Shown piece after piece: positions 25,035-38,791 of a stretch of DNA of 41,176 nt. The notes under the pieces were generated by a model. It made no database searches. It had not been told where the DNA came from and saw only the letters and a list, made by a program, of their open reading frames with translations. The DNA is taken from positions 1 to 41,176 of IMG/VR virus record IMGVR_UViG_3300017707_001413; one strand, 5' to 3'. The number at the start of each line of letters is the position of its first letter. Position 1 is the stretch's first letter. The translations under genes were made by a program, and so were the position numbers. This stretch comes from a virus (lineage: Duplodnaviria > Caudoviricetes).

Positions 25035-25064
25035 CGTAAAACGTGAAACGTGAAACGTAAAACG
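25035..25064 (+). repeat. Heptamer repeat (AAACGTR)
   Basis: CGTAAAACGTGAAACGTGAAACGTAAAACG; same unit at ~26910-26932 and 36990-37012. Confidence 0.8.
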
Positions 25065-25066
25065 GA

Positions 25067-26058: not shown

Positions 26059-26099
26059 AGACAGACACGGATTGCACGGATGAACACGGATGAGAACCA

Positions 26100-26456
26100 A
26101 TGAGCAATTGGGACATGATAATAACGATTTGCTTGATGCTGGCCGGCGCGATTGCCGGGGCGGCGATCATGGCAGTAACCACAACAGACCAACAAAGGAA
26201 ACAACACATGGCAGACATCACCACGCTCCTCGCTTTGGCGAAGGAGAACAACGGACAGGCGAAGAAGATTCGCGCGGAAGTCTTCGGCATGAAGACGGCG
26301 CTGGATGGGCGGATCGCGGCGCTGGAGAAGCTGATCAGCGAACTGACGATCACGCCGGAACAGCTCGCGGCCCTGGAAGCGGAGTTGACAGGGGCAAAGG
26401 AAACGATTGCGGAGATCGATTCACTGAACCCGGACGCCACGGAACCGCAGGCTTAA
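26100..26456 (+). CDS. TM + coiled-coil protein (possible i-spanin; alternative start 26208)
   Basis: Hydrophobic N-terminus then a long coiled coil; follows the lysozyme gene. Confidence 0.45.
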   Translation: MSNWDMIITICLMLAGAIAGAAIMAVTTTDQQRKQHMADITTLLALAKENNGQAKKIRAEVFGMKTALDGRIAALEKLISELTITPEQLAALEAELTGAKETIAEIDSLNPDATEPQA

Positions 26457-26470
26457 ACAAAAAACAAAAA

Positions 26471-26503
26471 TCCCGGTGAGGTGCAGGAAACACTTCACCG
26501 GGA
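26471..26503. terminator. Stem-loop with A-tract on its left (possible minus-strand terminator)
   Basis: TCCCGGTGAGGTG-CAGGAAA-CACTTCACCGGGA. Confidence 0.45.
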
Positions 26504-26526
26504 CAATCAACCGAACGGAACGAAAT

Positions 26527-26790
26527 ATGAAATCAACCGGACCAAAGAACAAGGGCAAAGCGAAGGCATTGCCGAAGGACGCGCCGATAGTGAAAGCGAA
26601 AAGCGAGGCGGTGGGACTGCTGGTGGACGCGGCATTACGGGCGGCAATGCTCACGAAGACATTGCGCGAAGCCCACTCGGCGGCGTGCCATGAAAACGGA
26701 TTGCTGGCCATGGTGTTGCTGGGTCGGCTGGAAAGCGCGTCGAGTCTGCAACGCAAGATCGAGAACGTCCGCAACTGCGTAAACACATGA
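26527..26790 (+). CDS. Hypothetical protein
   Basis: ORF with plausible start in the early operon. Confidence 0.45.
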   Translation: MKSTGPKNKGKAKALPKDAPIVKAKSEAVGLLVDAALRAAMLTKTLREAHSAACHENGLLAMVLLGRLESASSLQRKIENVRNCVNT

Positions 26791-26832
26791 GCAATTCAAT
26801 CGAGCGGGAGCGGACGGGAGCGGGGGGGGACG

Positions 26833-26932
26833 AAGCTCAAAGCTCAAAGTTCAAAGCTCAAAGTTCAAAGCTCAAAGTTCAAAGCTCAAAGTTCAAAGCT
26901 AAAAGCTCAAAACGTGAAACGTAAAACGTAAA
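26833..26932 (+). repeat. Heptamer array (AAAGCTC/AAAGTTC) x~11 followed by AAACGTR x3
   Basis: Alternating AAAGCTC/AAAGTTC units, then AAACGTG AAACGTA AAACGTA. Confidence 0.9.
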
Positions 26933-26939
26933 GGACGAC

Positions 26940-27152
26940 ATGCCAAGAAAACATAATGCAGCAACGGAATGCCTGCTCGCGGCGGCGCGGGTGCATGAGG
27001 TGGCGGGGACGCTGATCTTTGAACGGAAGGCGGACGCGCGCCAGATCGAAGCGGCCGTGGTGCAGTTGCAGAGGACGAGCGACACGCTCTTGAAGCTGCA
27101 AGCCTCGGAAAAGGCGGAGGCTTTGGAACAAGGAAAGGACGACAAACTATGA
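26940..27152 (+). CDS. Hypothetical protein
   Basis: RBS AAGGA, ATGA-coupled to the ATPase gene. Confidence 0.5.
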   Translation: MPRKHNAATECLLAAARVHEVAGTLIFERKADARQIEAAVVQLQRTSDTLLKLQASEKAEALEQGKDDKL

Positions 27153-28600
27153 ATCAATTCACGATCAACGGAGTGAACGGGGTGAAGGATCTGGTGGTGA
27201 GCATCGACGGGCCGGGGGTGTTCGTGGCCAGGGGGCCGAACGGGGCGGGGAAGTCGAACGCCATCGAGGCGATCAAGGCGGCAAACGGGGACAAGGACGC
27301 GAAGGCGGAGCCGTCCGACGGGTTCGCGAAGGGCGAGGTGCGCGGCGCAAGCGGAGAGGTGCTGATGGCGGTGGGGAACCGGCGGAAGCTGGCGGGCGAT
27401 CTGCCATCGGTGCGGCTGGTGTCCACGGGCGCGATTGGGCGGCTGATCGATCCGCAGATCGCGGACAGCGAGACGGCGGCGAAGGCGCGCATCAAGGCGT
27501 TGCTGACTTTGATGCCGCTGCCGGCGGATGACGCGGCGCGGATGGGGCTGACGGCGAATGACGAGGAGCTTCAGCTCTGGATCAAGAGTGATCCATCGAA
27601 GGACGCGGCGGAGATGGCGGAGGCGGTGCGGAAGCGGGCGAACGAGCTGGCGAACGAGCTGGAGAAGCGCAGCGCAGAGGCGTCGGGCGAGGAGCTTTCG
27701 ATGAACGCGCTGATCGAGGGTCTGGGGCAGTTGGATTTCGAGGCGGGCAATTTGAAGGTGCAGGAGACGATCCTTCAGCAGATGGCGAATGCGGCGTCAG
27801 TGAAGGCGGAGACGGCACAGGCGAGGTTGACGTTGGAGCGTCAGCAGGAAGAGGCAAGGAAGGCGATGGGCGAGAGGCCGGACATCGAGAAGGCGCAGGC
27901 GGATTTGGATGCGGCGAATCGATCTGTGTTTGAGGCGCAGGCCGCGTTGAAAGTGGCAGCGGCGATGTGGGAGGAAAAAGGCCGGGCGTTGAACGGGGCG
28001 AAGCGGGCACTGATGGTTTACGCGGCGCAAACCGAAATTCTGAGGCAAGAGATCAAAGGCGCCACGACGCAGGAGGCGATTGAAGCGGAGCAGGCGGCGG
28101 ATGCACAGCGGGGCCGGGTGGAACGGGCGCGGAAGGTGGACCAGGCGAAGAGCTTCATGGCGTCGGCGATGGCGGCGAAGGAGCGTCGGGAGAAGTGCGC
28201 GGATCGTGCGGTGGTATTGCGCGGCATCGCGAAGGGGACGGCGACGGCCTTGGGAGAATTGCTGGCGCGGCGCGGGTTGCCGGGGCTTGGGATCACGGAG
28301 GGTCGGCTGGTGGTGTTGGACCCGGCGGCACCGGGCGGGATGAAGGATTTCGATTTGCGCCTGAGCTTCGGCGAGCGGGTGCGGGCGGCGCTGGGGATTG
28401 CTCTTGCCGGAATGACCAATGACCAAGGCCCAATGTCCAATGACAGAAGGCTGCCGGTGATGGCGTTGGAGCCGGGTTTCTGGCTGGCGCTGGATGACGG
28501 GCACAGGGCGGAGGTGAACCGGATCGCGAGGGAACGCGGGGTGTGCCTGATCACGGAGGAGCCGGGGGATGGAGAACTGAGAATTGAGAGGATGGCGTGA
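27149..28600 (+). CDS. SMC/SbcC-like ABC-ATPase with coiled coil
   Basis: Walker A GPNGAGKS, long coiled coil, signature LSFGE, degenerate Walker B. Confidence 0.75.
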   Translation: MNQFTINGVNGVKDLVVSIDGPGVFVARGPNGAGKSNAIEAIKAANGDKDAKAEPSDGFAKGEVRGASGEVLMAVGNRRKLAGDLPSVRLVSTGAIGRLIDPQIADSETAAKARIKALLTLMPLPADDAARMGLTANDEELQLWIKSDPSKDAAEMAEAVRKRANELANELEKRSAEASGEELSMNALIEGLGQLDFEAGNLKVQETILQQMANAASVKAETAQARLTLERQQEEARKAMGERPDIEKAQADLDAANRSVFEAQAALKVAAAMWEEKGRALNGAKRALMVYAAQTEILRQEIKGATTQEAIEAEQAADAQRGRVERARKVDQAKSFMASAMAAKERREKCADRAVVLRGIAKGTATALGELLARRGLPGLGITEGRLVVLDPAAPGGMKDFDLRLSFGERVRAALGIALAGMTNDQGPMSNDRRLPVMALEPGFWLALDDGHRAEVNRIARERGVCLITEEPGDGELRIERMA

Positions 28601-28691
28601 ACGAAAAAGCTAACTGACGTATGCCCGCCACTGACTACCAAAACAAGAAAACCGTGAACTGGCATACGTTCACAGCAGCGCCTGGTTAGGC
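28596..28691 (-). other. attC site (cassette 16, most distal)
   Basis: Plus strand: CGTGAAC..TGACGTATGCC..GGCATACGTTCA..GTTAGGC. Confidence 0.75.
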
Positions 28692-28704
28692 GCACCTGAC
28701 CATT

Positions 28705-28905
28705 ATGAGCATCCAAGACATCCAAAAAAGAATCGACGACATAAAAGCGAGCGTGGGCGACGACGAGAGCGCGCACGGAATGGAAGACGCGCTCAGACGC
28801 GACTTCATCGCCTACCTCGCAAGCGGCGGGGCGGAAGACACCCAGAGCAAAGCGGCGCTCGTGCTCACAACCGAGGGACTGAGCTTTGCGCGGTGGTGCG
28901 CCTAA
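28705..28905 (+). CDS. Cassette 16 ORF, small hypothetical protein
   Basis: Cassette ends GTTAGGCGCAC / GTGCGCCTAAC (11/11 complementary); stop is the TAA of the R box. Confidence 0.7.
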   Translation: MSIQDIQKRIDDIKASVGDDESAHGMEDALRRDFIAYLASGGAEDTQSKAALVLTTEGLSFARWCA

Positions 28906-28985
28906 CGCCTAGCTATGGCACGGCGAAACAGGACTCCGATTGCAAGTGGCGGATTATCGCCGTTGCCATAAGCGTCTTGTTAGGC
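28900..28985 (-). other. attC site (cassette 15)
   Basis: GCCTAAC..GCTATGGCACGGCGA..TCGCCGTTGCCATAAGC..GTTAGGC. Confidence 0.85.
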
Positions 28986-29025
28986 TTTTTTGGGATGGTA
29001 TGGAATGAACAATAAGCGAAAGAAT

Positions 29026-29475
29026 ATGGAAATATACATAGTAAAAGAGTATGAAGCAATCGAGGGAGGCGGAGGTCACGAATCCATTATTGGGGCATGG
29101 TATGACAAGGAATCCGCCGAAAAATATGCCGCAAACCAGAACGGGGGGCGTTACATGCAGTGGGATGTTGAAGAGGTGGATGTCATGGATACTCAGCCTA
29201 ACTCCAAAGCTCAGCCAATGCCGCGCTCTCCCTCAACTCCCGCAGACCTCAACGGCCCCGTGCGCGGCATTGGCTGTGGCGGTTTGTTAGGCTGTATTTG
29301 TCACCGCTGCATTCGCGAGAAGGACATACGAAACGAATGGGGTATGCCGATAAGCTCCTCGCAAATGATCGTGTGCCCCGAATGCGGAAACAAACGATGC
29401 CCGCACGCCAGCGACCATCGATTCGCCTGCACGAAATCAAACCAACCCGGACAGGCCGGTAGCGTCTATGCTTAA
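29026..29475 (+). CDS. In-frame fusion of cassette 15 and cassette 14 ORFs (C-terminal Cys-rich domain)
   Basis: Reads through attC 29196-29292; internal ATG at 29218 starts the CHRC..CPECGNKRCPHASDH domain. Confidence 0.6.
   Translation: MEIYIVKEYEAIEGGGGHESIIGAWYDKESAEKYAANQNGGRYMQWDVEEVDVMDTQPNSKAQPMPRSPSTPADLNGPVRGIGCGGLLGCICHRCIREKDIRNEWGMPISSSQMIVCPECGNKRCPHASDHRFACTKSNQPGQAGSVYA
29196..29292 (-). other. attC site (cassette 14)
   Basis: GCCTAAC..CAGCCAATGCCGCGC..GCGCGGCATTGGCTG..GTTAGGC. Confidence 0.85.
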
Positions 29476-29582
29476 CTCCTGAGATGAGCCACGAGTCCGC
29501 AGAACACTCTATGGAAACGATAACTCAAAAACCTACCGAGAACGGACAGCCGGGCTTGTTGCGCTCTGGCGATTTGTTCGGC
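29470..29582 (-). other. attC site (cassette 13)
   Basis: GCTTAAC..GAGCCACGAGTCCG..CGGGCTTGTTGCGCTC..GTTCGGC (more degenerate). Confidence 0.65.
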
Positions 29583-29906
29583 GAGATTGTCCGCAAGCAC
29601 AGCCTCGCAGTCGAATCACTGACGGAACAACAGCTCGCCGAAGTCATACGGCAAGCAATCGCATCCGGCGACATCGTGCGGAACGTGATGCACGACGGCT
29701 CCGCGCAGGCGATCACCTACATCCCGTATCGCGAAGTCTCGCGCCTACGGGACCAGTATCACGAACTGCTCTACGCAGTCGCCAGCAAGCACGACGGCGA
29801 GACGCGGCACGAGACGGCGCTGCGCTATATCCGCGAACGCGAGGAACGCACCGAAGGCCCGGCCTCTTCTTCGCCGAACGCTCCGCATGAGCGACCGCCG
29901 ACATGA
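29484..29906 (+). CDS. Cassette 13 ORF, phage hypothetical protein (start 29484 or 29511, inside attC)
   Basis: Cassette ends GTTCGGCGA / TCGCCGAAC; 'YHELLYAVASKHDGETRHETALRYI'. Confidence 0.65.
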   Translation: MSHESAEHSMETITQKPTENGQPGLLRSGDLFGEIVRKHSLAVESLTEQQLAEVIRQAIASGDIVRNVMHDGSAQAITYIPYREVSRLRDQYHELLYAVASKHDGETRHETALRYIREREERTEGPASSSPNAPHERPPT

Positions 29907-29963
29907 GACGCCCGAACTCGCCAGAAACGCTTGCCGGCGGTTCGCTCCATGCGGTGGTTGGGC
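29873..29963 (-). other. attC site (cassette 12)
   Basis: GCCGAAC..CCGCATGAGCGACCGCCG..CGGCGGTTCGCTCCATGCGG..GTTGGGC. Confidence 0.9.
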
Positions 29964-29989
29964 GTCCGTCGAATTATGAAAATAGACGC

Positions 29990-30018
29990 TTGACAATGCG
30001 AGCTAGCACGCATAGAGT
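29990..30018 (+). promoter_or_regulatory. Sigma70 promoter inside cassette 12 with operator in the spacer
   Basis: TTGACA-N17-TAGAGT; near-palindrome ATGCGAGCTAGCACGCAT. Confidence 0.7.
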
Positions 30019-30026
30019 AGGCACGT

Positions 30027-30266
30027 ATGAAACAACAAATCACTGCGGTCAAAATAACGGCGGGGCAATATCGCCTCGGAAACCTCGTAGTCGTCAAACA
30101 TCCTCCGACGTTCGCGGGCACAACAACAACGTGGTGCAGGGCGGACAATCAAGGCGGCGGAATGCTCGGCTACTCGCTAGCGGAAGTGGTCGAACTGGCA
30201 AACAAGCCGATGTCGTATGCCTACGACCTCGCCAACGGCACGAAACTGCATCCCGCATCCAAATGA
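30027..30266 (+). CDS. Cassette 12 ORF1, hypothetical
   Basis: ATG 8 nt after the -10 box; ATGA-coupled to ORF2. Confidence 0.6.
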   Translation: MKQQITAVKITAGQYRLGNLVVVKHPPTFAGTTTTWCRADNQGGGMLGYSLAEVVELANKPMSYAYDLANGTKLHPASK

Positions 30267-30496
30267 ACAAGTGCCCCAAATGCGGCCACACATGGCCGGA
30301 CACGAAGCGCGCCAGCGGTGGAAAAGCTCGCTGGCGCGGACTCACCAAAAAGCAACGCTCACAAGCTGCCAGCGAGGCGGCGAAAGCACGATGGGCAAGG
30401 ACGCCCAACGTCGCCGATTCTCGAAATAACTCGGTGAGCAGCCCAACGACCAAGCTCAGCAACCACTGGCCGACAGTGACGAAGGACAACCAATGA
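30263..30496 (+). CDS. Cassette 12 ORF2, zinc-knuckle + basic helix protein
   Basis: MNKCPKCGH..SGGKARWRGLTKKQRSQAASEAAKARW. Confidence 0.65.
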   Translation: MNKCPKCGHTWPDTKRASGGKARWRGLTKKQRSQAASEAAKARWARTPNVADSRNNSVSSPTTKLSNHWPTVTKDNQ

Positions 30497-30556
30497 ACCA
30501 AAACGCATCGAACGTAAAGAGGACACCGGCTGTTGCGGTGCAGCGCGTGGTTAGGT
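30441..30556 (-). other. attC site (cassette 11)
   Basis: GCCCAAC..GCTCAGC..GCCG..CCGGCTGTTGCGGTGCAGC..GTTAGGT; homologous to attC 35619-35745. Confidence 0.75.
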
Positions 30557-30825
30557 GCGTCGAGGTTTCAAAAGAACTTCAAGACAATCTGGCCGTGATG
30601 AAAAGACTGATCGGAGACAAATGGGAAGCCAGCGCCGCCGAATACAAAACCATCGTGAGCAGAGTGATGATCGCTACCAACGACGACAACCCAATCTCCT
30701 GCGCGCTTCCGATGGCGAAAGAAATGTCCAGGCGAGGACACAGCCCGCTCATGCTGCTGGCCGTCGCAACTGAAATGAGCGAAGCACCTAACGCAGAGTC
30801 CAGCCGCCCCGCGCCGAAAATCTGA
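30493..30825 (+). CDS. Cassette 11 ORF, hypothetical (starts in attC loop)
   Basis: Cassette ends GTTAGGTGC / GCACCTAAC; RBS AAGGA + ATG inside attC. Confidence 0.65.
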   Translation: MNQNASNVKRTPAVAVQRVVRCVEVSKELQDNLAVMKRLIGDKWEASAAEYKTIVSRVMIATNDDNPISCALPMAKEMSRRGHSPLMLLAVATEMSEAPNAESSRPAPKI

Positions 30826-30898
30826 ACGCTATGGAAACGAAAACGAGCAACGAAAATCAGGACGCTTGCGCGGGGTTGGCTGCGACGACGGGTTATGC
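30786..30898 (-). other. attC site (cassette 10)
   Basis: ACCTAAC..GTCCAGCCGCCCCGCGC..GCGCGGGGTTGGCTGCGAC..GTTATGC. Confidence 0.85.
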
Positions 30899-31100
30899 CA
30901 TTCGCGCCATGAATCCACGCGAGGGCGACAAAATCACACAGGGCTCGACCACAATAGAAGTGAAGTGGGTGGCGGACGGAACTGTAGCCTACGTGGTGCA
31001 AAACGAATCGCAAAAGCTAGACCGACAAGCCCCGCTCGAAGACTGGCCGAGGCTGATGCGAATAGCATTGGACAAGGGGGCAACATTCCATGCGGCATAA
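30831..31100 (+). CDS. Cassette 10 ORF, hypothetical
   Basis: Cassette ends GTTATGCC / GGCATAAC; ATG in the attC loop. Confidence 0.6.
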   Translation: METKTSNENQDACAGLAATTGYAIRAMNPREGDKITQGSTTIEVKWVADGTVAYVVQNESQKLDRQAPLEDWPRLMRIALDKGATFHAA

Positions 31101-31186
31101 CGATCCGGATCAGAGACCCGGCCAATGAAGACTCTCGATTGCAACCACGACGCGATGGCCGGGTTCTCTGCATCCGGTTGTTCTCC
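31095..31186 (-). other. attC site (cassette 9)
   Basis: GCATAAC..CCGGATCAGAGACCCGGCCA..TGGCCGGGTTCTCTGCATCCGG..GTTCTCC. Confidence 0.9.
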
Positions 31187-32021
31187 ATCCGGTCGAACTC
31201 ACCTCGACCTGTTCAGTGGAATCGGTGGCTTCGCGCTCGCCGCGCAAGCGGCGGGATACTCAACCATCGGCTTTTCTGAAATCGAACCCTATGCCTGCAA
31301 AATCCTCAAACGACACTGGCCCGACGTGCCCAACCACGGCGACATCCGAAATATCCGAAACGTGCGGGCCGACCTCATCACAGGCGGATTTCCTTGCCAG
31401 CCTTTCAGTCTCGCCGGGAAGCGACTCGGCGCGGCGGATGACCGTCACCTCTGGCCGGAAATGTGCCGAGTTATTGGCGAGGCGCGACCAACTTGGGTGC
31501 TTGGTGAGAATGTGCCTGGAATCATCGGTCTGGAACTCGACGGCGTGCTATCTGACTTGGAAGGTCTCGGCTACGCCGCGTGGCCGCTTGTTATTCCGGC
31601 TGTCGCCTGCGATGCCAGACACCGAAGAGACCGGCTTTGGGTTGTGGCCCACTCCCAATGTCTGTGGCGGCGGGAACCCGCCGCACATCCTGACGAAGCA
31701 CAAGGGCCACTACATCCGACCAAGCGGGAAGAAGGCGCACCTCGGACTGGACCAAGCCGTGAAGCTGTGGCCGACGCCTCGGGCGAGCGAAAACGAAAAC
31801 CGGCAGACGAAGCCAACTCCGTCGCAGATAGCGGGAACACATGGCAAGAGTCTGGCGGCGGAATGCGGTGGCGCCCTGAACCCGAACTGGGTCGAGTGGC
31901 TGATGGGATACCCAATCGGCCACACCGCCTCCGTGGACTTGGAAACGCCATCGTCCCGCAAGTCGCGGAAACGCTCCTGCGCATGATGGCGAGGATGGAG
32001 AACGATAAAATCCTGCCATGA
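31125..32021 (+). CDS. Cassette 9: DNA cytosine-5 methyltransferase (alpha polypeptide)
   Basis: Motif I DLFSGIGG, IV GGFPCQPFS, VI ENV, VIII HRRDRLW, X LGNAIVPQVA. Confidence 0.92.
   Translation: MKTLDCNHDAMAGFSASGCSPSGRTHLDLFSGIGGFALAAQAAGYSTIGFSEIEPYACKILKRHWPDVPNHGDIRNIRNVRADLITGGFPCQPFSLAGKRLGAADDRHLWPEMCRVIGEARPTWVLGENVPGIIGLELDGVLSDLEGLGYAAWPLVIPAVACDARHRRDRLWVVAHSQCLWRREPAAHPDEAQGPLHPTKREEGAPRTGPSREAVADASGERKRKPADEANSVADSGNTWQESGGGMRWRPEPELGRVADGIPNRPHRLRGLGNAIVPQVAETLLRMMARMENDKILP
31216..31986 (+). CDS. Overlapping +1-frame ORF, probable beta polypeptide of the C5-MTase (TRD + motif IX)
   Basis: 256 open codons inside the MTase gene; WPTP repeats and LNPNWVEWLMGYP (motif IX-like); true start uncertain. 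Confidence 0.65.
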   Translation: MESVASRSPRKRRDTQPSAFLKSNPMPAKSSNDTGPTCPTTATSEISETCGPTSSQADFLASLSVSPGSDSARRMTVTSGRKCAELLARRDQLGCLVRMCLESSVWNSTACYLTWKVSATPRGRLLFRLSPAMPDTEETGFGLWPTPNVCGGGNPPHILTKHKGHYIRPSGKKAHLGLDQAVKLWPTPRASENENRQTKPTPSQIAGTHGKSLAAECGGALNPNWVEWLMGYPIGHTASVDLETPSSRKSRKRSCA

Positions 32022-32094
32022 ATCCCGCGCCCTCCAGCTCCGCCTCGTCACCGACTCCCTCGCGGGAGTCATTGGCAGCGATGCCTTGTTGTCC
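31997..32094 (-). other. attC site (cassette 8)
   Basis: GGAGAAC..ATCCTGCCATGAATCCCGCG..CGCGGGAGTCATTGGCAGCGAT..GTTGTCC. Confidence 0.85.
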
Positions 32095-32875
32095 GTCTTT
32101 TGTGTATTCCGCGCAGGGCTCACTATGGGGAGAAAAGGAGGTAGTCGGATTCGGGAATTATGCGTTCCGCGTCGTGGAAATCGGCAAGCCGGAAGCAAAC
32201 GCCGTGATCATCGCAAACCACTACTCGAAAAAAACCGCCACCGATGCCCACACGCGCCTCTGCTATGCCGTGGAAATCGACGGGGAGAGAATGGGCGTGC
32301 TGCAATTCGGATACGCCATGAATCCCGCCAGTGGCTCGGCTGTGGTGGCAGAAACCGGGCTGAATGACTACCTGGAACTGAATCGGATGTGGCTCGATGA
32401 CCGCGCCCCGCGCAACACCGAAAGCAAGGCGATAGCCTACTGCCTGCGGACGATCCGCCGCCGGATGCCAACCGTCGAATGGGTGATGAGCTTCGCGGAT
32501 GAACGCTGCGGAAAGCTGGGCGTGGTCTATCAGGCCGCAAACTTCGGATACTACGGCGGACACGTCTCCACGTTCTGGGAAATCGACGGTGAAATGATCC
32601 ACAATGCGATAGCCACGAACGGCAAGCGGAAACGCAAGGACTCGCTCGACATGGAAAAGGCGATCCGCCACGACCTACGGCAATTCCGATACATCTACTG
32701 GCTGCAAAAGCGGGCGCGGAAACGCTGCCTACTCACTGAGCAGCCATACCCCAAACATGCGTCAGAGGGCTCTGTGGAGAGCCGCCTCGTTACCAACGAG
32801 GAGGGGCAGGGTCAGATCCTGCCTGACGCTCCATTTTCTTCGGACAACGACCAAGCTCAGCGACCTGCCAAATGA
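32018..32875 (+). CDS. Cassette 8: Mom-like adenine-modification protein (GNAT fold)
   Basis: IIANHYS, GVLQFG, YLELNRMWLDD..PRNTES, SFADERCG..GVVYQAANF are hallmarks of the phage Mu Mom family. Confidence 0.85.
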   Translation: MNPAPSSSASSPTPSRESLAAMPCCPSFVYSAQGSLWGEKEVVGFGNYAFRVVEIGKPEANAVIIANHYSKKTATDAHTRLCYAVEIDGERMGVLQFGYAMNPASGSAVVAETGLNDYLELNRMWLDDRAPRNTESKAIAYCLRTIRRRMPTVEWVMSFADERCGKLGVVYQAANFGYYGGHVSTFWEIDGEMIHNAIATNGKRKRKDSLDMEKAIRHDLRQFRYIYWLQKRARKRCLLTEQPYPKHASEGSVESRLVTNEEGQGQILPDAPFSSDNDQAQRPAK

Positions 32876-32947
32876 TCCAAAGCGATCCAATTGCCTCAAT
32901 GCGTCGTGCCGGGCGAACCGCAGGTTCGCTGAAGCGCGTGGTTACAC
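32842..32947 (-). other. attC site (cassette 7)
   Basis: GGACAAC..GCTCAGCGACCTGC..GCAGGTTCGCTGAAGC..GTTACAC. Confidence 0.9.
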
Positions 32948-33108
32948 CGCGTCCGGACGATCCGGGATGGCTGGAGGACTGGCCAAGGCGAAACAAGGCC
33001 GGTGACGCAGTGGTGATGTGGGATGAACTTATCGCGTGCATGAACCTGCGGCATCAGCGGTGTAACGCAGAAGTCAGCGACCGGCGCGGAGCCGGTTCGC
33101 TGCACTGA
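32872..33108 (+). CDS. Cassette 7 ORF, small hypothetical
   Basis: Cassette ends GTTACACCGC / GCGGTGTAAC; starts and stops inside attC sites. Confidence 0.5.
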   Translation: MIQSDPIASMRRAGRTAGSLKRVVTPRPDDPGWLEDWPRRNKAGDAVVMWDELIACMNLRHQRCNAEVSDRRGAGSLH

Positions 33109-33118
33109 CGGGTTCTGC
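33060..33118 (-). other. attC site (cassette 6), classic 59-base element
   Basis: Minus strand: GCAGAAC CCGTC AGTGCAGC GAACCGGC TCCGC GCCGGTC GCTGACT TCTGC GTTACAC. Confidence 0.92.
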
Positions 33119-33122
33119 ATTT

Positions 33123-33413
33123 ATGACGAAAATTGACTATTACGAAGGACTGAACCGCGACTCGAAACTGACCGTGGAACTCGACGTGCCGACAGTCGCG
33201 AAAGAAATCTGCGCGATGAACTACGGCGCGCACCGGCTGCTCTCAGCGATGGTCCGCGAACTCCGAGCGAAGAACATGGAATACGTGAACTACCAACGCG
33301 AGAAGGACGCCGCATTGCCGGAAAATCGGCGGCTTAATCTGCCCGCTGAACGCGAACGGTCGCCGCTGGCCGACGCAATCGAAGCCGCACTAAACGCGGG
33401 GCACACCTACTAA
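33123..33413 (+). CDS. Cassette 6 ORF, hypothetical
   Basis: Cassette ends GTTCTGCATTTA / TAAATGCAGAAC (12/12). Confidence 0.7.
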   Translation: MTKIDYYEGLNRDSKLTVELDVPTVAKEICAMNYGAHRLLSAMVRELRAKNMEYVNYQREKDAALPENRRLNLPAERERSPLADAIEAALNAGHTY

Positions 33414-33415
33414 AT

Positions 33416-33508
33416 GCAGAACGGTGCGGATCAGCGACCGGGCCACACGAAAGGCTCGGATTGCAAGTGACGTGCGATGGCCCGGTTCGCTGCATCCGCT
33501 TGTTAGGG
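33416..33508 (-). other. attC site (cassette 5)
   Basis: Minus strand: CCCTAAC AAGCG GATGCAGC GAACCGGGCC..GGCCCGGTC GCTGATC CGCACC GTTCTGC. Confidence 0.92.
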
Positions 33509-33546
33509 CGCAGTTTCCGGGGCGTGAAAATAAATGCAGAATCTTC

Positions 33547-33574
33547 TTGCAATACCCAGCGATGGGTATAGAGT
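33547..33574 (+). promoter_or_regulatory. Sigma70 promoter inside cassette 5 with operator in the spacer
   Basis: TTGCAA-N16-TAGAGT; inverted repeat ATACCCA-GCGA-TGGGTAT. Confidence 0.65.
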
Positions 33575-33580
33575 GAGCAC

Positions 33581-33763
33581 ATGAATAAAGCAACTCTGAC
33601 GGGAATGAGAATGATGGCCGAAGCGATGACCGCAACGGATAACTACGCTGCCCAAATCGAAGTGGATGGAAAATGGCAGACCGTGATCGACAAGCTCAAC
33701 AAGGCCGAAGCCGAAAAGATGGCGAGCCGATGGGAGCGCAGCCGGGTGGTGAAGGTATGGTAA
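33581..33763 (+). CDS. Cassette 5 ORF1, hypothetical
   Basis: ATG 6 nt after the -10 box (leaderless-type). Confidence 0.6.
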   Translation: MNKATLTGMRMMAEAMTATDNYAAQIEVDGKWQTVIDKLNKAEAEKMASRWERSRVVKVW

Positions 33764-33969
33764 AATGCCCACACTGCGGCGGGGAAATAAACCCCGCCGC
33801 ACTCCTCGGCAGCATCTCGACGCCAGCGAAGGCGCGGGCTGCTCGCGCGAACGCCAAGCTCGGCGGATGGCCGAAGGGCCGGAAGCGTGGAAAAACCAAG
33901 CGCGTCTGCCTGCGCCCTAACGCTCCGCATGAGCCATGCGGCGCGAAGAAAGAAAACCGTGAACACTGA
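33757..33969 (+). CDS. Cassette 5 ORF2, zinc-knuckle + basic protein
   Basis: MVKCPHCGG..STPAKARAARANAKLGGWPKGRKR. Confidence 0.65.
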   Translation: MVKCPHCGGEINPAALLGSISTPAKARAARANAKLGGWPKGRKRGKTKRVCLRPNAPHEPCGAKKENREH

Positions 33970-34026
33970 AACCAATATCCGAACTGAAGGGCGTCCGCCG
34001 CATTGTGCTCCATGCGGTTGTTCTCC
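33915..34026 (-). other. attC site (cassette 4)
   Basis: CCCTAAC..CCGCATGAGCCATGCGGCG..CGCCGCATTGTGCTCCATGCGG..GTTCTCC. Confidence 0.88.
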
Positions 34027-34636
34027 TGCGTCAAATTCTAAAATGCGCTTCTCAGATGAGCATCGAGCAAATCTGTCCGCTGCCCTATCAGGTCGAAAAT
34101 TTTCTGATGAGCACCGCAAAAAACTCTCGGAAAGCTACAGGATGACATATAAAAACGGTCGCCAGCCTTCGGTAATCGCCGCAAACAAACTCGCTGAATG
34201 GACGAAGCAAAACCTGACTGGAAAGCCGCTGTCTCCAGAACACAATGAAAACGCCCACGCCCCGCTGCGTGGGAAACTCCGAACATCTGAAAAAGTAAAA
34301 CGCGGCAAGCTCACTGGAGCACTATCCGGCCAAATCAGAGACGACAGAGGCGTAACACACCGCTTTGTAAATCTCGTCCACTTCGTAAGAACGAATCCTC
34401 ATCTGTTCAAGGCTGATGAAATCCAATGGCGTAAAGACGGGCGAGGACATGAAGTGTGCCGTGCCTCAAAAGGGCTGGCGAATCTGTTTGGGAAAGGAAA
34501 GGTCGTGCCGGGATCGTGGCACGGCTGGACTGTCGTAAGCATCCATGAACGACGCTTCAATGACGGGAACGACCTACTCGCCCGGAACGATCAGGAGAAC
34601 GCTCCGCATGAGCGACCGCCGACCAAAACGCTATGA
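33959..34636 (+). CDS. Cassette 4: NUMOD3-motif DNA-binding protein
   Basis: FSDEHRANLSAALSGRKFSDEHRKKLSES and GKPLSPEH repeats; GTG start in the attC loop (start uncertain). Confidence 0.65.
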   Translation: MNTETNIRTEGRPPHCAPCGCSPASNSKMRFSDEHRANLSAALSGRKFSDEHRKKLSESYRMTYKNGRQPSVIAANKLAEWTKQNLTGKPLSPEHNENAHAPLRGKLRTSEKVKRGKLTGALSGQIRDDRGVTHRFVNLVHFVRTNPHLFKADEIQWRKDGRGHEVCRASKGLANLFGKGKVVPGSWHGWTVVSIHERRFNDGNDLLARNDQENAPHERPPTKTL

Positions 34637-34683
34637 TTGCAACTGAAACGCCAGCGGCGGTTCGCTCGATGCGGTTGTTAGAC
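34594..34683 (-). other. attC site (cassette 3)
   Basis: GGAGAAC..CCGCATGAGCGACCGCCG..GCGGCGGTTCGCTCGATGCGG..GTTAGAC. Confidence 0.9.
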
Positions 34684-35373
34684 GGCCAGATTGTGACGCC
34701 ATACTACGAAGATGAATACGCGACGCTCTACAATATGGACTGTGAACAAGGAATCGAAGGCGTGAAATTCGATGTCCTTCTGACCGATCCGCCCTACTTC
34801 CTGCCGATCAATTCATACGTCGGGCGGCGTGGTGAAGGCTACGAGAAAACCATGCTCGGCGACATGAGCGTGCTGCGCGGCTACTTCAAGATGATGTTCC
34901 GAAAGTTCCGGGCGGCGATGCCTGACACTGGCAGCATCTACGCCTTCTGTGATGCCAAAAGCTATCCAATCTTTTTTGAAGCGATGTTCCCGCTGTGCAA
35001 GCACGTCCGGCTGATAATCTGGGACAAGCAAGTTAGCTACAACGGCTACACATGGCGGCATCAGCACGAACTCATAGCGTGGGGCGAACTCGAAAACACC
35101 GTGCGCGTGCCAACCGGCGACGGCGACATCATCCGATGCCGTGGCGTGCTACAAGACGACAAACAACATCCCGCCGAAAAGCCGGTGCGACTGCTTGAGG
35201 CAATCTGTAAAAAACACGAAGGCGTCATCTGTGACCCATACGCGGGAAGCGGTTCGACGCTGGTAGCTGCGAAGATATGCGGTCGAAAAAGCATAGGCTT
35301 CGAGATGGAGGAAAAGCACTGTGAAACAGCAGCAAAGCGACTACAACAAACAACGCTCGGCCTGGCCGTCTAA
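34633..35373 (+). CDS. Cassette 3: DNA N4-cytosine/N6-adenine methyltransferase (beta class)
   Basis: LTDPPY, IIWDK, HPAEKP, DPYAGSGST; cassette ends GTTAGACGGCCAG / CTGGCCGTCTAAC (13/13). Confidence 0.92.
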   Translation: MIATETPAAVRSMRLLDGQIVTPYYEDEYATLYNMDCEQGIEGVKFDVLLTDPPYFLPINSYVGRRGEGYEKTMLGDMSVLRGYFKMMFRKFRAAMPDTGSIYAFCDAKSYPIFFEAMFPLCKHVRLIIWDKQVSYNGYTWRHQHELIAWGELENTVRVPTGDGDIIRCRGVLQDDKQHPAEKPVRLLEAICKKHEGVICDPYAGSGSTLVAAKICGRKSIGFEMEEKHCETAAKRLQQTTLGLAV

Positions 35374-35498
35374 CGAGAAAGGTCAGCGATGAGCTGTCAA
35401 AAATGCGGTGGTGAACATAGCACAATGGCGTGTGATGACGAAGGCGAGCAACGAACGAGAAAGGCGCAAAGCTCATTCGCTGCACCGTCTGGATATGC
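35368..35498 (-). other. attC site (cassette 2) with non-canonical ATC/GAT core
   Basis: GTCTAAC..GGTCAGCGATGAGC..GCTCATTCGCTGCACC..GATATGC. Confidence 0.85.
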
Positions 35499-35685
35499 CG
35501 CGATGGAGGCCACGGTGACGGCTCTCGAACGACGGGTATCCGAACTGGAGAAGCACTCGCATCCGCCCGTGAATCTGCGACCCGCCGTGGAAGCCATCGT
35601 GGAAGAATGTCTCTCGCGGCATATCGACCAAGCTCACCCACAGCCGGGGGCGGCAGGGGTGGAGCGCAAAGGAGACAACCAATGA
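35389..35685 (+). CDS. Cassette 2 ORF, hypothetical
   Basis: Cassette ends GATATGCCGCGA / TCGCGGCATATC (12/12). Confidence 0.55.
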   Translation: MSCQKCGGEHSTMACDDEGEQRTRKAQSSFAAPSGYAAMEATVTALERRVSELEKHSHPPVNLRPAVEAIVEECLSRHIDQAHPQPGAAGVERKGDNQ

Positions 35686-35745
35686 ACCAAGAAACATCGA
35701 ACGTAGAGAGCGCACCGGCTGTTGCGGTGGAGCGCGTGGTTAGCC
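35619..35745 (-). other. attC site (cassette 1)
   Basis: GCATATC..GCTCACCCACAGCCGG..CCGGCTGTTGCGGTGGAGC..GTTAGCC. Confidence 0.85.
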
Positions 35746-35969
35746 GCCTGCCAGCGTGTAAAGGAACAAACTGCGGATGCACAGATGGGGTCAGCCACTC
35801 CAAGGAATGCCGCGAAGAATACGAAGCTGCCACGGCCATGCCCTACGACGAACAATGGCTGCACGAACCAGATGACGGGCGAGGCTGGAAGTGCCACGTC
35901 TGCAAATACGGCGGCTCGGCAAACAACAGCGCGAACACCTTCTGCGCGAACTGCCACAGGCACAAATGA
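35682..35969 (+). CDS. Cassette 1 ORF, Cys-rich with RanBP2-like zinc finger
   Basis: CKGTNCGCTDGVSHSKEC and WKCHVC..N..CANC; RBS AAGGAG + ATG in the attC loop; ends GTTAGCCGCCT / AGGCGGCTAAC. Confidence 0.65.
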   Translation: MNQETSNVESAPAVAVERVVSRLPACKGTNCGCTDGVSHSKECREEYEAATAMPYDEQWLHEPDDGRGWKCHVCKYGGSANNSANTFCANCHRHK

Positions 35970-35973
35970 AGGC

Positions 35974-36010
35974 GGCTAACAGTGATTAACAAACTCCTGA
36001 TCTGTTAAAT
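35974..36010 (-). other. Putative attI site
   Basis: Minus strand: ATTTAACAGATCAGGAGTTTGTTAA-TCACT-G^TTAGCC; an R core without an attC hairpin, directly upstream of intI. Confidence 0.65.
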
Positions 36011-36970
36011 ATGAACACCGAGGCTGCAATTCAAAGACTTGTGGAAGTGTGCCGGAGGCAGCACAAATCGCTGTCAACAGAGAGGGTTTACTCGCATTGG
36101 CTACGGGACTTTTGCAGGTTTGTTCCGACCGTAGATCCTGCTCTTTCCAGTGAGCGAAAGATGGAGGCTTATTTGACGATGCTGGCCCGGAAAAGGGATG
36201 TATCCGCATCGACGCAGAATCAGGCGTTCAATGCGGTGTTGTTCTTTTATCGGCGCGTGCTCGGGCAGGAATTGAAGGACATCGACGGACTGCGCGCGAC
36301 GCGGCCGGATCGGGTGCGGTATGCGCCGACGGTGGATGAGGTGCGCCAGTTGTTGCCGATGGTGCGCGATGTGGGTGGGTATCCGACGAACTTGATCACG
36401 CGGATGCTTTACGGGTGCGGTTTGCGTGTGAGTGAGCCGCTGGCGTTGCGGGTGAAGGATCTGGATCTGGTGAACAGCCAGGTGCGAATCATCGAAGCGA
36501 AGAATCGAAAGGATCGCGTGGTCAAGCTGCCGTGTTCCATCGTGGAGGAGTTGCGAGCGCAGATGGATTTCGCGCGGGCGGTCTGGCGGCGGGACGTGGA
36601 GGGAAAGTTGCCGGTGGTGTTGCCGCATCAGTTGGCGAGGAAATATCCGGCTTATCAATTCGCCTGGTCGTGGGCCTGGGTGTTTCCGATGCGGAACGCT
36701 TGCCGGCATCCGCGCACGGGTGAATGGGTGCGCTGGCATGTGCTGCCGTGCAATGTGCAGCGGGCGGTTCAGGAGGCGGCGCAAAAGCTGGAACTGCCGA
36801 TCACGCCCCACTGTTTGCGCCACGCCTACGCGACGCATTCGCTGAACCGGGGCGTGAACATCAAGGCGTTGTCAGAGGCGATGGGGCACGCGCAGATCGA
36901 GACGACGGCGGGGTATTGCCACGCGGAGGCGTTGAGCGTGCCGAGTCCGTTGGAATTGGTGATGGCATGA
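36011..36970 (+). CDS. intI: Integron integrase (tyrosine recombinase)
   Basis: SASTQNQAFNAVLFFY, LYGCGLRVSE, IntI-specific insertion LPHQLARKYP..W.WVFP..HPRTG..RWH, HCLRHAYATH, MGH..TTAGY. Confidence 0.92.
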   Translation: MNTEAAIQRLVEVCRRQHKSLSTERVYSHWLRDFCRFVPTVDPALSSERKMEAYLTMLARKRDVSASTQNQAFNAVLFFYRRVLGQELKDIDGLRATRPDRVRYAPTVDEVRQLLPMVRDVGGYPTNLITRMLYGCGLRVSEPLALRVKDLDLVNSQVRIIEAKNRKDRVVKLPCSIVEELRAQMDFARAVWRRDVEGKLPVVLPHQLARKYPAYQFAWSWAWVFPMRNACRHPRTGEWVRWHVLPCNVQRAVQEAAQKLELPITPHCLRHAYATHSLNRGVNIKALSEAMGHAQIETTAGYCHAEALSVPSPLELVMA

Positions 36971-37020
36971 CGGTGGATGAGATTTCAGAAAACGTGAAAC
37001 GTGAAACGTAAAGGAGCGAG

Positions 37021-37545
37021 ATGAACGAAGGACACAACAGCGGAATGACGCACGATCAGCAGATGGAGCAGCTCAGGCAGTTGCAGATACGGACAACGAC
37101 GCCGGCCGCGCCGGCCGCGCCGACGCATTTTCAACCAATGCAACCAACGATGAATCCACCGAACCAACCGACGCCGTATCAACCGCCGCAGCCGCCGCCG
37201 ATGCAACCGCACCAGCCAGCACCAGCGGTCGCAATGGCTCCGGTGCATTATCCGCCGCCAGGGTATCCACCGCAGCCGATGCCGGGCTATCCGCCGCAAC
37301 CGATGGCACCGCCCGCGCTGCCAGCGGCAATCGGATTCATGGTGCCGATGAAGGTGAACACGCAACAGGGGACGGTGAAGGCGATGGTGATGTTTGGGCC
37401 GGAATGGGCGGCGAATCCTGCCGCTGCGGAGCAATTGATCACGGCGCTGCAATTCGCGGGCTGGCCGGTGGACGCGTGGCAGAAGCCGCCGGGCGGCGGA
37501 GGTGGTGGAAGCTGGGGCGGTGGCGGCGGACGCGGGAGGTATTGA
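37021..37545 (+). CDS. Pro/Gln-rich low-complexity protein with Gly-rich tail
   Basis: RBS AAGGAG; PPGYPPQPM repeats; GGGGGGSWGGGGGRGRY. Confidence 0.6.
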   Translation: MNEGHNSGMTHDQQMEQLRQLQIRTTTPAAPAAPTHFQPMQPTMNPPNQPTPYQPPQPPPMQPHQPAPAVAMAPVHYPPPGYPPQPMPGYPPQPMAPPALPAAIGFMVPMKVNTQQGTVKAMVMFGPEWAANPAAAEQLITALQFAGWPVDAWQKPPGGGGGGSWGGGGGRGRY

Positions 37546-37551
37546 ACGAAC

Positions 37552-38277
37552 ATGAACACGAAAAACGCTGAATGGAAATGCGCGCCTTGGCTGGCGCTGG
37601 ACATCGAGACGCGCGGAGGGAATCCCGAGTGCGCCGCCGAACACGTCCGCAAAGAGTGGTGGCCGACGGAATCCTGGACGCCGGAGACGATTGGGAAAAG
37701 GTTCAAGGTGGCCATCGAGGAGACGGCGCAGAAGATGGGTCTGCTCGATACGGCGGGGATCGCCACGGTGCAACTGAAGACGCCGACGATGGCGCTGGTG
37801 CTGCACTGCCTGACGCTCCATGAGCTGGTGCAGTTGCCAGCGGGGTATCAGGTGGGATTCAACACCGAGAAGGAGCTGTTGATCTATCTCAGGATCTGGC
37901 TGGAGAGCCAGGCGGACGATGCGACGGTGTTGACGGGATGGAATATCAAGGGATTCGACTTGCGGAGGATGCGTTTCGCGTATCTGCGGGCGGGTCTGAA
38001 CATCCCGCGCGCGCTGCGAGTGAGCGCGCCGACGTATGACATGATGGAGGAATACGCCAAGCATTTCAGCGTGAACCGGAATCCGTTCGTGAAGCTGGAG
38101 GTCGCGCTGGAGGCGTTTGGGATGCGGAATCACAAGACGGAGATGGACGGATCGCAGGTGGACAAGATGATCGCGGCGGGGGAGTTCGACAAGGTGCTGA
38201 AGTACGCGTGGGATGACATCGAGCAGGAGGCGGAGCTGTTCCTGATCATGACGGGGCAGAGCGGGAGGCTGGGATGA
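37552..38277 (+). CDS. DnaQ/PolB-type 3'-5' exonuclease
   Basis: ExoI LDIET, ExoII GWNIKGFDL, ExoIII YAWDD. Confidence 0.85.
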   Translation: MNTKNAEWKCAPWLALDIETRGGNPECAAEHVRKEWWPTESWTPETIGKRFKVAIEETAQKMGLLDTAGIATVQLKTPTMALVLHCLTLHELVQLPAGYQVGFNTEKELLIYLRIWLESQADDATVLTGWNIKGFDLRRMRFAYLRAGLNIPRALRVSAPTYDMMEEYAKHFSVNRNPFVKLEVALEAFGMRNHKTEMDGSQVDKMIAAGEFDKVLKYAWDDIEQEAELFLIMTGQSGRLG

Positions 38278-38789
38278 ACGCGGCACAACTGATCAACCAG
38301 ACCTCGGGCGAGGTGGAGATTTACACGCCAGCGAAGATCATCGAGGCGGCGCGGGTGACGCTGGGCGGGTTCATCGAGCTTGATCCGGCGTCGAGCGAGA
38401 AGGCGAACGAAACGGTGAAGGCAAGGCGGTTCTTTACGCTAAAAGATGACGGATTAAATCAAATTTGGGCGGCGCAAACACTGTGGATGAATCATCCATT
38501 TTCGAGAAAGGGAAACCCGATGTGGATCAACAAGCTGATCCGGAATTACGAAATGCGATACACGCGGGCGGCGTGTTGCATCACTTTCGCGAGCACATCA
38601 GAGGCGTGGTTCAGGCCGCTGCGGGATTTCCCTCAATGCTATTTGTCGCCGCGCACCAATTACTTGTTGCCGGACGGGACAGTTTACAAAGGCGTAACGA
38701 AGGGCAGTGTAGTGACTTACCTGGGGCCGAATGTGGAATTGTTCCGGCGCGCATTCGAGGGCGAAGGCTTGGGAAAGGTGAAGGTTTAG
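38274..38789 (+). CDS. Phage DNA N6-adenine methyltransferase (Dam-like)
   Basis: EIYTP, LDPAS, DDGLNQIW, WMNHPF (NPPY variant), TSEAWF. Confidence 0.8.
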   Translation: MNAAQLINQTSGEVEIYTPAKIIEAARVTLGGFIELDPASSEKANETVKARRFFTLKDDGLNQIWAAQTLWMNHPFSRKGNPMWINKLIRNYEMRYTRAACCITFASTSEAWFRPLRDFPQCYLSPRTNYLLPDGTVYKGVTKGSVVTYLGPNVELFRRAFEGEGLGKVKV

Positions 38790-38791
38790 GC

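Follow-up and report, generated by a model that had tools for sequence, protein, structure and literature searches.

A candidate phage-adapted integron with cargo genes antisense to its attC sites in a tailed-phage genome

INTRODUCTION

Integrons have been treated as bacterial (and archaeal) tools and, lately, as stores of anti-phage genes. Does a phage also possess an integron of its own, and if so, how are the cassettes expressed? The question was raised by the 41,176-nt virus record IMGVR_UViG_3300017707_001413 (Duplodnaviria; Caudoviricetes), which was analyzed at its full length and is referred to here as the window. A first-pass annotation made from the letters alone had proposed that positions 28596 to 36970 are a complete integron carried by a tailed phage, and the IntI, attI-like site, 16 attC sites, and bridged assembly described below bear this out. 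What it overlooked was the defining oddity of the locus: the cargo is antisense to attC and attI. Our preferred explanation, to which we assign a probability of roughly 0.8, is a phage-adapted integron, which has an intact IntI, an attI-like site, and 16 attC-bounded antisense cassettes and is likely used to insert or exchange accessory early genes that would be read in one message through the array into intI.

RESULTS

An intact integron integrase

The product of intI scored 274.9 bits on TIGR02249 (cut-off, 265), and its scores on the XerC and XerD models were 99 and 97 bits, far under the cut-offs of about 330. The closest solved relative was IntI4 (VchIntIA; 2A3V; E-value, 4e-42), and the alignment with 2A3V ran across the IntI insertion (LPHQLARKYP..WVFP..HPRTG..RWH). 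Residues R139, K164, H267, R270, H293, and Y302 were invariant with those of IntI1 and of the Vibrio and Shewanella IntI proteins in a 12-row alignment. These findings agreed with the proposal that the protein is a tyrosine recombinase with the IntI-specific insertion. Identity of the gene at 36011 to 36970 as XerC/D or a phage integrase was rejected because the Xer cut-offs were missed and the IntI insertion was present.

intI was the sole PF00589 match in the record. When 7,997 proteins were scored, 906 matched the intI product at an E-value of ≤1e-90, and four of these matches showed 88 to 94% identity. The gene starts 266 nt past the last attC; therefore, the locus is not a cluster of attC sites lacking an integron integrase (CALIN), for which no intI is found near the attC cluster.

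Cassette ends, attC hairpins, and the attI-like site

Sixteen attC hairpins of 59 to 131 nt, from 28596-28691 through 35619-35745, were counted upstream of intI. The two ends of each cassette were perfectly complementary over 8 to 13 nt in 15 of the 16 cassettes; the exception was the third cassette from the left (14th from attI), which matched at 6 of 7 positions. Both counts were the same as those of the first-pass annotation. The pairing of cassette ends gave a diagonal sum of 159, which was reached by 0 of 100,000 permutations (maximum, 116). As placed in the array, the two cores of one attC paired beyond 4 nt in only 2 of the 16 sites, in keeping with the earlier observation that the cores of adjacent cassettes are mostly unmatched. 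Paired cassette ends are what integration from circles predicts, and the permutations thus upheld the proposed footprint of circular cassettes.

When the window was searched with an attC model built from the 16 sites, the sole further hit was a weak reverse match at a counted site, and the model also found the class 1 attC sites of the control record (E-values, 1e-6 and 0.035). The outer-stem covariation score of the 16 window sites was 0.29, versus 0.11 for shuffled sites. With 142 distinct viral sites, the scores were 0.59 and 0.14, respectively, although this alignment was fitted to the model and was hence biased. A scan of the window with Rfam yielded no match. The end pairing, the covariation, and the cross-hits of the model supported the identification of the hairpins as attC sites. 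An off-array hairpin candidate at 17862, which was called by an earlier version of the arm-asymmetry detector described below, was dropped by later tests.

Two cassettes had unusual ends. Between cassette 5 and S5 there is an additional stretch of 38 nt, which contains a second core along with a short hairpin and is possibly the remnant of an aberrant excision. Cassette 15 (35492-35625) has a non-canonical GAT/ATC core at both ends, which are complementary over 12 nt.

A candidate attI had been placed against the start of intI. In 20 aligned loci, the part of the attI-like motif from intI to the crossover triplet was conserved and the part past the triplet varied, which is how an attI site behaves, as judged by conservation. 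The last 11 bases of the motif were similar to the terminal bases of the Shewanella attI that PMC9892861 gives, and no hairpin was found between cassette 16 and intI. The abutting position was also considered as a phage-specific trait, which was dropped because chromosomal loci L143, L152, and L056 share it. In chromosomal locus L051, the attI-like motif is found three times in tandem before intI (9700-9940).

The cargo is antisense to the attC sites

The minus-strand reading of each site gave a core followed by a 5-nt spacer, three pairs and then an unpaired base, and six more pairs before an unpaired A. Both unpaired bases were on the left arm in this reading, and the second one was A in 16 of 16 sites. 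Our strand assignment rests on the unpaired bases because folding energy and GC skew pick no strand; according to PMC5027507, such extrahelical bases are the direct determinant of attC strand choice. A detector of arm asymmetry called 10 of the 16 window sites, all of them minus and 0 plus, and it called three class 1 control sites minus, where the control genes also lie minus. The detector was strict; it called none of the long Vibrio sites and one Shewanella site. The attC model agreed with the minus orientation of the window sites. Since the class 1 control showed the same unpaired-base pattern on its gene strand, the attI and attC sites of the window face away from intI, as they do in a regular integron.

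The cargo strand was read from family hits, which were on the plus strand in 5 cassettes, and from a codon-pattern score, which was plus in 16 of 16. Hence, all 16 cargo blocks are antisense to attC and have the orientation of intI and the phage early genes, and we filed the element as a variant and not as a classical integron. Tools that compare only the intI and attC strands would class such reversed arrays as regular and miss the flip.

The cargo itself was of phage type, with three DNA-modification cassettes, a NUMOD3/homing-endonuclease-like gene, and small phage proteins, which agreed with the first-pass view that this is not a captured host array. In the case of cassette 8, a second frame overlaps the methyltransferase gene, and the end of this frame is conserved in locus L003. 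Two-polypeptide methylases with an overprinted subunit are known, and the second frame resembles such an arrangement.

Viral relatives share the reversed layout, and chromosomal relatives do not

An IntI relative was encoded in 46 viral loci. In the 32 loci that were searched, 138 of 145 attC model hits were minus, and the seven that were not minus lay in clusters away from attI. Similarly, the cargo of 21 viral loci was called plus in 97 of 103 segments, versus 17 of 19 called minus in chromosomal L051. About 20 viral contigs with unlike backbones shared the reversed layout but had different cassettes. Their backbones differed (RecT, exonuclease VIII, Mu-like, DnaB, and helicases), and the arrays were in early regions. 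A scan of viral contigs with the attI consensus gave one locus, which had one attC hit.

The cassettes of the relatives were unlike those of the window except for methylases and two small zinc-finger open reading frames (ORFs). One cargo adjoins attI in L013 and is found mid-array in L011, and the likeness ends exactly at the crossover triplet. In the methylase cassette common to the window and L003, both ends had changed in step. Across the reversed arrays (window included), cassette ends paired over at least 7 nt in 90 of 103 cases, versus 14 of 132 array-form sites. The right hairpins of shared cargo were at background similarity (-0.11; n = 11).

The first-pass annotation had also proposed that the phage uses its own integron to acquire and reorder early genes. 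In support of this, the related phages hold different cassettes, and shared cargo occupies different slots; recombination in the present-day phage is inferred. A few joints were seen in the contigs, but they had short sides or letters between them and fell in hairpins shared with other genomes, and they were not taken as rearrangements.

Several relatives had additional arrangements. Second attC clusters away from intI were present in L007 (2029-4042), L010 (19032-19874), L036 (2357-3003), L037 (579-1674), and L045 (near 5330); some of these clusters were on the other strand, and a second attI-like motif was located inside the L045 array. Reversed cargo was also found beside IntIs outside the clade of the window (L033, L036, L037, L039, and L081), so the layout is older or arose more than once. 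In L047 (KX853513, GenBank virus Rctr41k; 6600-10100), an IntI-like gene is annotated xerD, and five plus-strand attC calls lie downstream of it, on the gene strand.

Cellular contigs with 51 to 60% IntI identity, mostly from Verrucomicrobiota where named, had the same attI motif and attC type in the normal orientation; they come from a cellular scan of 25 of 64 parts, in which 80 of 560 loci were retained. L051 had 20 attC sites in the normal orientation, and reading of the ORFs gave the same orientation for L056, L059-L061, L143, L147, L149, and L152. The long cellular contigs L051 (715 kb) and L059 (928 kb) carried normal arrays with bacterial cargo rather than prophages. A comparison of 237 cargo segments gave no homologous pair with one member in a reversed array and the other in a normal one. 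The exceptions to the split were reversed arrays on three short contigs of metagenome-assembled genomes (L055, L057, and L081), which may be viral. Thus, one enzyme clade occurs in two layouts, viral and chromosomal, which is an internal control.

Stop/start overlaps and proposed transcription through the array

In 7 of the 16 window hairpins, an ATGA stop/start overlap was found in the core-entry frame (frame 0). Each of the seven ATGA sequences opens a long ORF across the far core, and six of these ORFs are the called cargo gene; at S4, the ATGA opens a 197-codon frame that overlaps cassette 5. In two of the seven hairpins, the present neighbor gene stops earlier. Of the window ORFs, ten run into the following core in a single frame; four end on a TAA within the core, and two end immediately ahead of it.

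Frame-0 ATGA was found in 38 of 113 sites of the viral relatives (36 of which open a cargo ORF), versus 1 of 63 comparison sites. When reversed arrays were compared to the normal arrays of close IntI relatives, the counts were 49 of 136 and 1 of 49 (Fisher P = 4e-7; the sites are not independent). Upstream ORFs entered the core in frame 0 at 72 of 112 sites and stopped there at 16 of 112. Because the hairpin is in front of its gene, gene starts fall inside the hairpin. These patterns suggest that the ATGA overlaps act as a ribosome relay, that is, as a standard translational-coupling interface through the hairpins.

The backbone ATPase gene of the window stops in the outermost core, and a backbone gene also ends at the first attC site in L006 and L009; thus, the array is built into the early operon. 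The outer core at the ATPase stop is likely the far half of the original attI, and cassette 16, at the other end of the array, is predicted to be the newest insertion.

A cassette promoter (Pc) at attI cannot express reversed cargo, so the transcription we propose would come from the early operon and from cassettes 5 and 12, which have promoter-like sites facing intI. A simple scan found no minus-strand consensus promoter near intI, although the consensus may not be that of the host. Cassettes 5 (29990-30496) and 12 (33547-33969) are alike in having a plus-strand promoter-like site with a palindromic spacer, a small ORF, and an ORF for a CPxCG/basic-helix protein. Homologues of the last ORF are found in L011, L039, L005, and L036. 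It is possible that these are self-regulating promoter cassettes.

Features of the locus

The positions of the integron features are shown in Table 1.

Table 1. Positions of the integrase gene, attI-like site, attC sites, and cargo in the window
Feature	Position	Strand	Basis
Backbone AAA_23/SbcC-like ATPase gene; stop codon overlaps outer core of most distal attC	27149..28600	+	
attC S0, most distal, imperfect inner stem	28596..28691	-	
Cargo 1, 66 aa, phrog_10733	28705..28905	+	
attC S1	28900..28985	-	
Cargo 2 and 3, single open frame through attC S2	28990..29475	+	
attC S2	29196..29292	-	
attC S3	29470..29582	-	
Cargo 4, start inside S3, end inside S4	29484..29906	+	
attC S4, in-register ATGA	29873..29963	-	
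Promoter-like TTGACA-17-TAGAGT in cassette 5, facing intI	29990..30018	+	Consensus match only
Cargo 5, two ORFs: 79 aa; 77 aa, CPxCG plus basic helix	30027..30496	+	
attC S5, preceded by 38-nt extra piece with second core (30407-30445)	30441..30556	-	
Cargo 6, start in S5 loop	30493..30825	+	
attC S6	30786..30898	-	
Cargo 7, start in S6 loop, stop in S7 core	30831..31100	+	
attC S7, in-register ATGA	31095..31186	-	
Cargo 8, C5-cytosine DNA methyltransferase, PF00145	31125..32021	+	
Second frame overlapping cargo 8, 256 aa, methyltransferase family	31216..31986	+	phrog_1008, E-value 7e-30
attC S8, in-register ATGA	31997..32094	-	
Cargo 9, Mom-like DNA modification protein, PF25680	32018..32875	+	
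attC S9, in-register ATGA	32842..32947	-	
Cargo 10, 78 aa, no family	32872..33108	+	
attC S10, 59 nt, shortest	33060..33118	-	
Cargo 11, 96 aa, no family	33123..33413	+	
attC S11	33416..33508	-	
Cargo 12: promoter-like TTGCAA-16-TAGAGT with palindromic spacer (33547-33574), then ORFs of 60 aa and 70 aa (CPxCG plus basic helix)	33547..33969	+	Promoter-like site read from the sequence
attC S12	33915..34026	-	
Cargo 13, NUMOD3/homing-endonuclease-like (weak)	33959..34636	+	
attC S13, in-register ATGA	34594..34683	-	
Cargo 14, N6/N4 DNA methyltransferase, PF01555	34633..35373	+	
attC S14, 131 nt, in-register ATGA; one core is the non-canonical GAT/ATC pair of cassette 15	35368..35498	-	
Cargo 15, 98 aa, start in S14 stem	35389..35685	+	
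attC S15, in-register ATGA	35619..35745	-	
Cargo 16, Cys-rich, 95 aa, cassette adjoining attI	35682..35969	+	
attI-like site; crossover triplet 35978-35980	35974..36010	-	20-row alignment including chromosomal L051
intI, integron integrase, intact, 319 aa	36011..36970	+	TIGR02249, 2A3V alignment, catalytic residues

Phage genome and assembly

At the left end of the window, plus-strand genes for the terminase (terS and terL), portal, head protease, and major head protein were found, as expected for Caudoviricetes; at the right end, the plus-strand genes were those for an exonuclease, an adenine methylase, and a replication initiator. Tail genes matched weakly, with one tape-measure match (E-value, 6e-4) as the sole tail hit. 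All of the backbone genes called in the window were on one strand, and they included a single small helix-turn-helix gene. GC skew was near 0 in the array, versus +0.14 to +0.33 in both flanks.

In run X1, a freshwater metagenome and possibly the source run, contigs covered positions 4500 to 41152 at a depth of 188 to 277. The left border of the array was bridged by a contig spanning 26871-31288 and the right border by one spanning 31884-41152, and the depth of the assembled contigs was even from the capsid genes to intI. In view of the even depth and the bridged borders, the record is not a phage-host chimera, and no chimeric join was seen. Positions 41167 to 41176 look like a sequencing adapter, and near 41152 the X1 contig also changes into adapter sequence. 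The adapter end and the location of terS at base 26 hint at physical genome ends, despite the CheckV estimate discussed below.

Three further features of the assembly were observed. Depth fell to 188 at 24171-26866, compared to about 270 elsewhere, and a variant contig of depth 44 branches at 24171-24265; this is a variable region where the early genes begin. Short intergenic tandem repeats with a 7-nt unit are located in the early region (26830-26935, 25625-25665, and 25040-25060). Finally, a second X1 contig (depth, 310) shares only the S8 hairpin (31997-32102) and has unlike flanks on both sides; it is a second abundant genome with a related attC.

DISCUSSION

A model for cassette exchange and expression

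In the mechanism we propose on the basis of known integron chemistry (PMC5027507 and PMC8946536), attC would fold when single-stranded during phage replication. A cassette would be a hairpin and the cargo to its right on the plus strand, and IntI would excise it as a circle by attC × attC recombination on the folded plus strand. Insertion of the circle at attI would then make the array grow at the intI end. Expression would come from the far end, through the phage early operon and the promoter-bearing cassettes, with intI last in the message. Many genes appear to start inside the preceding hairpin, and the upstream gene would stop at or just before the core or else enter it in a fixed frame and stop on an ATGA overlapping the next start; with such a standard interface, cassettes could be placed in any order and ribosomes would still be passed on. 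The likely benefit would be a set of exchangeable early functions, anti-restriction DNA modification among them, in which the methylase and Mom-like cargo would protect against host restriction, as PMC9892861 argues for phage cassettes.

If this explanation is right, the reversed phage version would have the same recombination parts serving the other side of the arms race with a different expression logic. Part of the mosaicism seen in phage early regions could then be put down to a site-specific process, and the element would supply natural protein-coding attC sites.

A number of observations weigh against the phage-adapted integron. Regarding strand, folding energy showed no significant preference for the plus strand (10 of 16; P = 0.13), the GC skew of the window sites was neutral (7 of 16 negative), unlike that of the mobile-integron attC sites described in PMC5027507, and the first unpaired base was mostly G on the minus strand (10 of 16), versus C in the aadA7 control oligonucleotide. 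The codon-pattern heuristic is crude: one Vibrio control segment was miscalled, and the results were mixed on the GC-rich loci L143, L147, and L152, which were settled by reading ORFs. Regarding the unit of exchange, two pairs (L011:7180-7820 with L013:1851-2454 and L014:7520-7950 with L163:936-1356) had the same cargo and the same paired ends but different left hairpins, which suggests that hairpins can be swapped apart from cargo. The left hairpins of shared cargo were only slightly above chance (mean, 0.00; n = 15; versus -0.11; standard deviation, 0.15). Regarding activity, the contigs of two runs showed no excised circle or triplet-reordered junction, although contigs drop rare variants, and when the flanking ATPase and exonuclease were used to look for close backbone relatives, no useful relative and no empty or reordered version of the phage turned up. 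Regarding expression and completeness, a consensus promoter scan located no early promoter and flagged only cassette 5 of the two internal promoter-like sites, and CheckV put the completeness of the record at 42%.

Alternative explanations

The missing circles and reordered junctions would be expected if the array were a fossil or host driven, that is, if it had been built earlier or by a host IntI and was now changed only by phage recombination at similar hairpins. The exchange of hairpins between copies of the same cargo, the imperfections of S0 and cassette 3, and the 38-nt remnant fit this idea, and PMC9892861 reports that phage attC sites are substrates of bacterial IntI1. A fossil does not readily account for an IntI that is intact in all catalytic residues and has 906 matches at an E-value of ≤1e-90, for cassette ends that are complementary in 15 of 16 cassettes and covary between phages, or for an attI kept beside intI in about 20 loci. 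We consider this explanation rather unlikely.

It is also unlikely that IntI serves also or mainly as a lysogeny integrase, which would insert the whole genome via attI or attC into attC-like sites of the host, with cassette capture as a side effect. The long cellular contigs L051 and L059 held normal arrays with bacterial cargo and no prophages, the window backbone is one-stranded with its single small helix-turn-helix gene, and one relative carries Mu-like transposition genes. On the other hand, reversed arrays were present on the short contigs L055, L057, and L081, and the intI product was the only PF00589 match in the window and in three of three near-complete relatives, with a PF00239 match in 0 of these four genomes. 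This pattern fits lytic phages and leaves room for a role in lysogeny.

A third possibility is that the cassette is the textbook unit of a gene and its downstream hairpin, read on the plus strand, and that the IntIs of this clade differ from others in recombining the strand that those avoid. The failure of energy and skew to pick a strand and the differing left hairpins of the two close cargo pairs are compatible with this, but the array opens with a full hairpin and closes with cargo and attI, and start codons lie inside the left hairpin. In addition, the right hairpins of shared cargo were no more alike than background, and the normal arrays of L051, L143, and L152 work with this very IntI clade and attC type, which makes this possibility very unlikely.

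Finally, capture of a whole piece of a host chromosomal integron, which PMC9892861 gives as the origin of published complete phage integrons and for which the close IntIs (51 to 60%) and similar attC sites of Verrucomicrobiota genomes might speak, or a phage-host chimeric contig, is largely refuted by the even depth and bridged borders, by the reversed, phage-type cargo with no pair linking reversed and normal arrays among the 237 segments, and by the fusion of the array to the stop codon of a backbone gene.

Origin of the IntI clade

The window's clade of 32 IntI rows had 100/100 support in a careful tree of 46 rows, from which 76 rows, mostly distant ones and near-duplicates, were left out; the 122-row tree was a quick tree, and the viral and chromosomal groups were named after it had been seen. 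Ten chromosomal-type rows formed two well-supported groups nested among 22 viral-type rows, although five of the ten (L052-L054, L058, and L062) had no attC in reach and their orientation was assumed. None of 200 bootstrap trees put the viral-type or the chromosomal-type label on one branch, and a constraint keeping the viral-type rows together was weakly rejected (approximately unbiased test, P = 0.035). The tree allows a phage origin of the Verrucomicrobiota-type chromosomal integrons, and repeated capture by phages with unsampled hosts fits it too.

A broader proposal, which we regard as doubtful, is that bacterial viruses of one widespread lineage operate reversed integrons of their own as plug-in sockets for early genes, with attC doubling as protein-coding, ribosome-relaying linkers, and that this lineage is ancestral to the chromosomal integrons of Verrucomicrobiota hosts, which would have arisen at least twice by domestication and a cargo flip. 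If it were true, phages would be a source of integron platforms and attC sites. With the tree, the long-standing question of the origin of both becomes testable on one clade with viral and chromosomal members.

Comparison with known integron systems

Complete integrons in phages have been published previously. PMC9892861 (Qi et al. 2023) lists three complete integrons, one In0, and 17 CALINs in 10,705 phage genomes. Therefore, the first-pass statement that integrons are normally chromosomal or plasmid/transposon elements has to be qualified by three complete ones in temperate phages, which are host derived, and what is new here is a phage-adapted one. The elements of Qi et al. and the window share integron parts in a phage, DNA methyltransferase cargo, and, for the published sites, attC activity with IntI1 (PMC9892861). 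They differ in that the phages with the published complete integrons are temperate or cryptic and in that these integrons look like those of hosts or of class 1 (PMC9892861). The TJE1 array from that study is in the normal orientation, unlike the window, and one of two sites in P12002L is reversed against the genes, for which the authors invoke mosaicism (PMC9892861). Our attC model misses the TJE1 and P12002L sites, and both were placed with short motifs from the PMC9892861 supplement. The main text of PMC9892861 describes no phage-linked IntI lineage or reversed array, and the Dryad annotations could show more reversed sites. Our literature search, which left most subscription papers outside its scope, found no report of complete phage integrons with reversed cargo and none of coupling signals in attC.

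Inverted-integrase integrons (PMC4889954 and PMC13323075) also have intI and cargo genes on one strand. There, intI lies on the attC strand, whereas in the window intI is plus, attC is minus, and the cargo is flipped. Assignment of the window to that class was rejected because intI and attC are not on the same strand. In the case of attI1 ORF-11 coupling and fused cassettes (PMC8876359), short overlapping frames likewise restart ribosomes on the next cassette, but the coupling in the window would sit in the attC hairpins themselves, on the reverse strand, and at many sites.

The chromosomal integrons of the same clade (L051, L056, L059-L061, L143, L149, and L152) share the 51 to 60% IntI identity, the attI motif, and model-found attC sites with the window. 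They differ in their normal orientation, in their bacterial membrane or secreted cargo, in having in-register ATGA at only 1 of 49 sites, and in that no shared cargo was found. Regular integrons, that is, class 1 (intI1/attI1/attC) and the Vibrio and Shewanella chromosomal integrons, have in common with the window an IntI with the insertion, attI at the 5' end of intI, paired cassette ends, and outward attC sites on the strand opposite intI with two unpaired bases. In the regular integrons used as controls (L048-L050), the genes are on the attC strand, and correct orientation of cassettes towards Pc is held to be essential (PMC5027507). In contrast, the phage cargo is antisense to attC, points towards intI, starts inside attC, and cannot be expressed by Pc. 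Thus, the recombination parts make the window element an integron, and its expression design makes it a variant.

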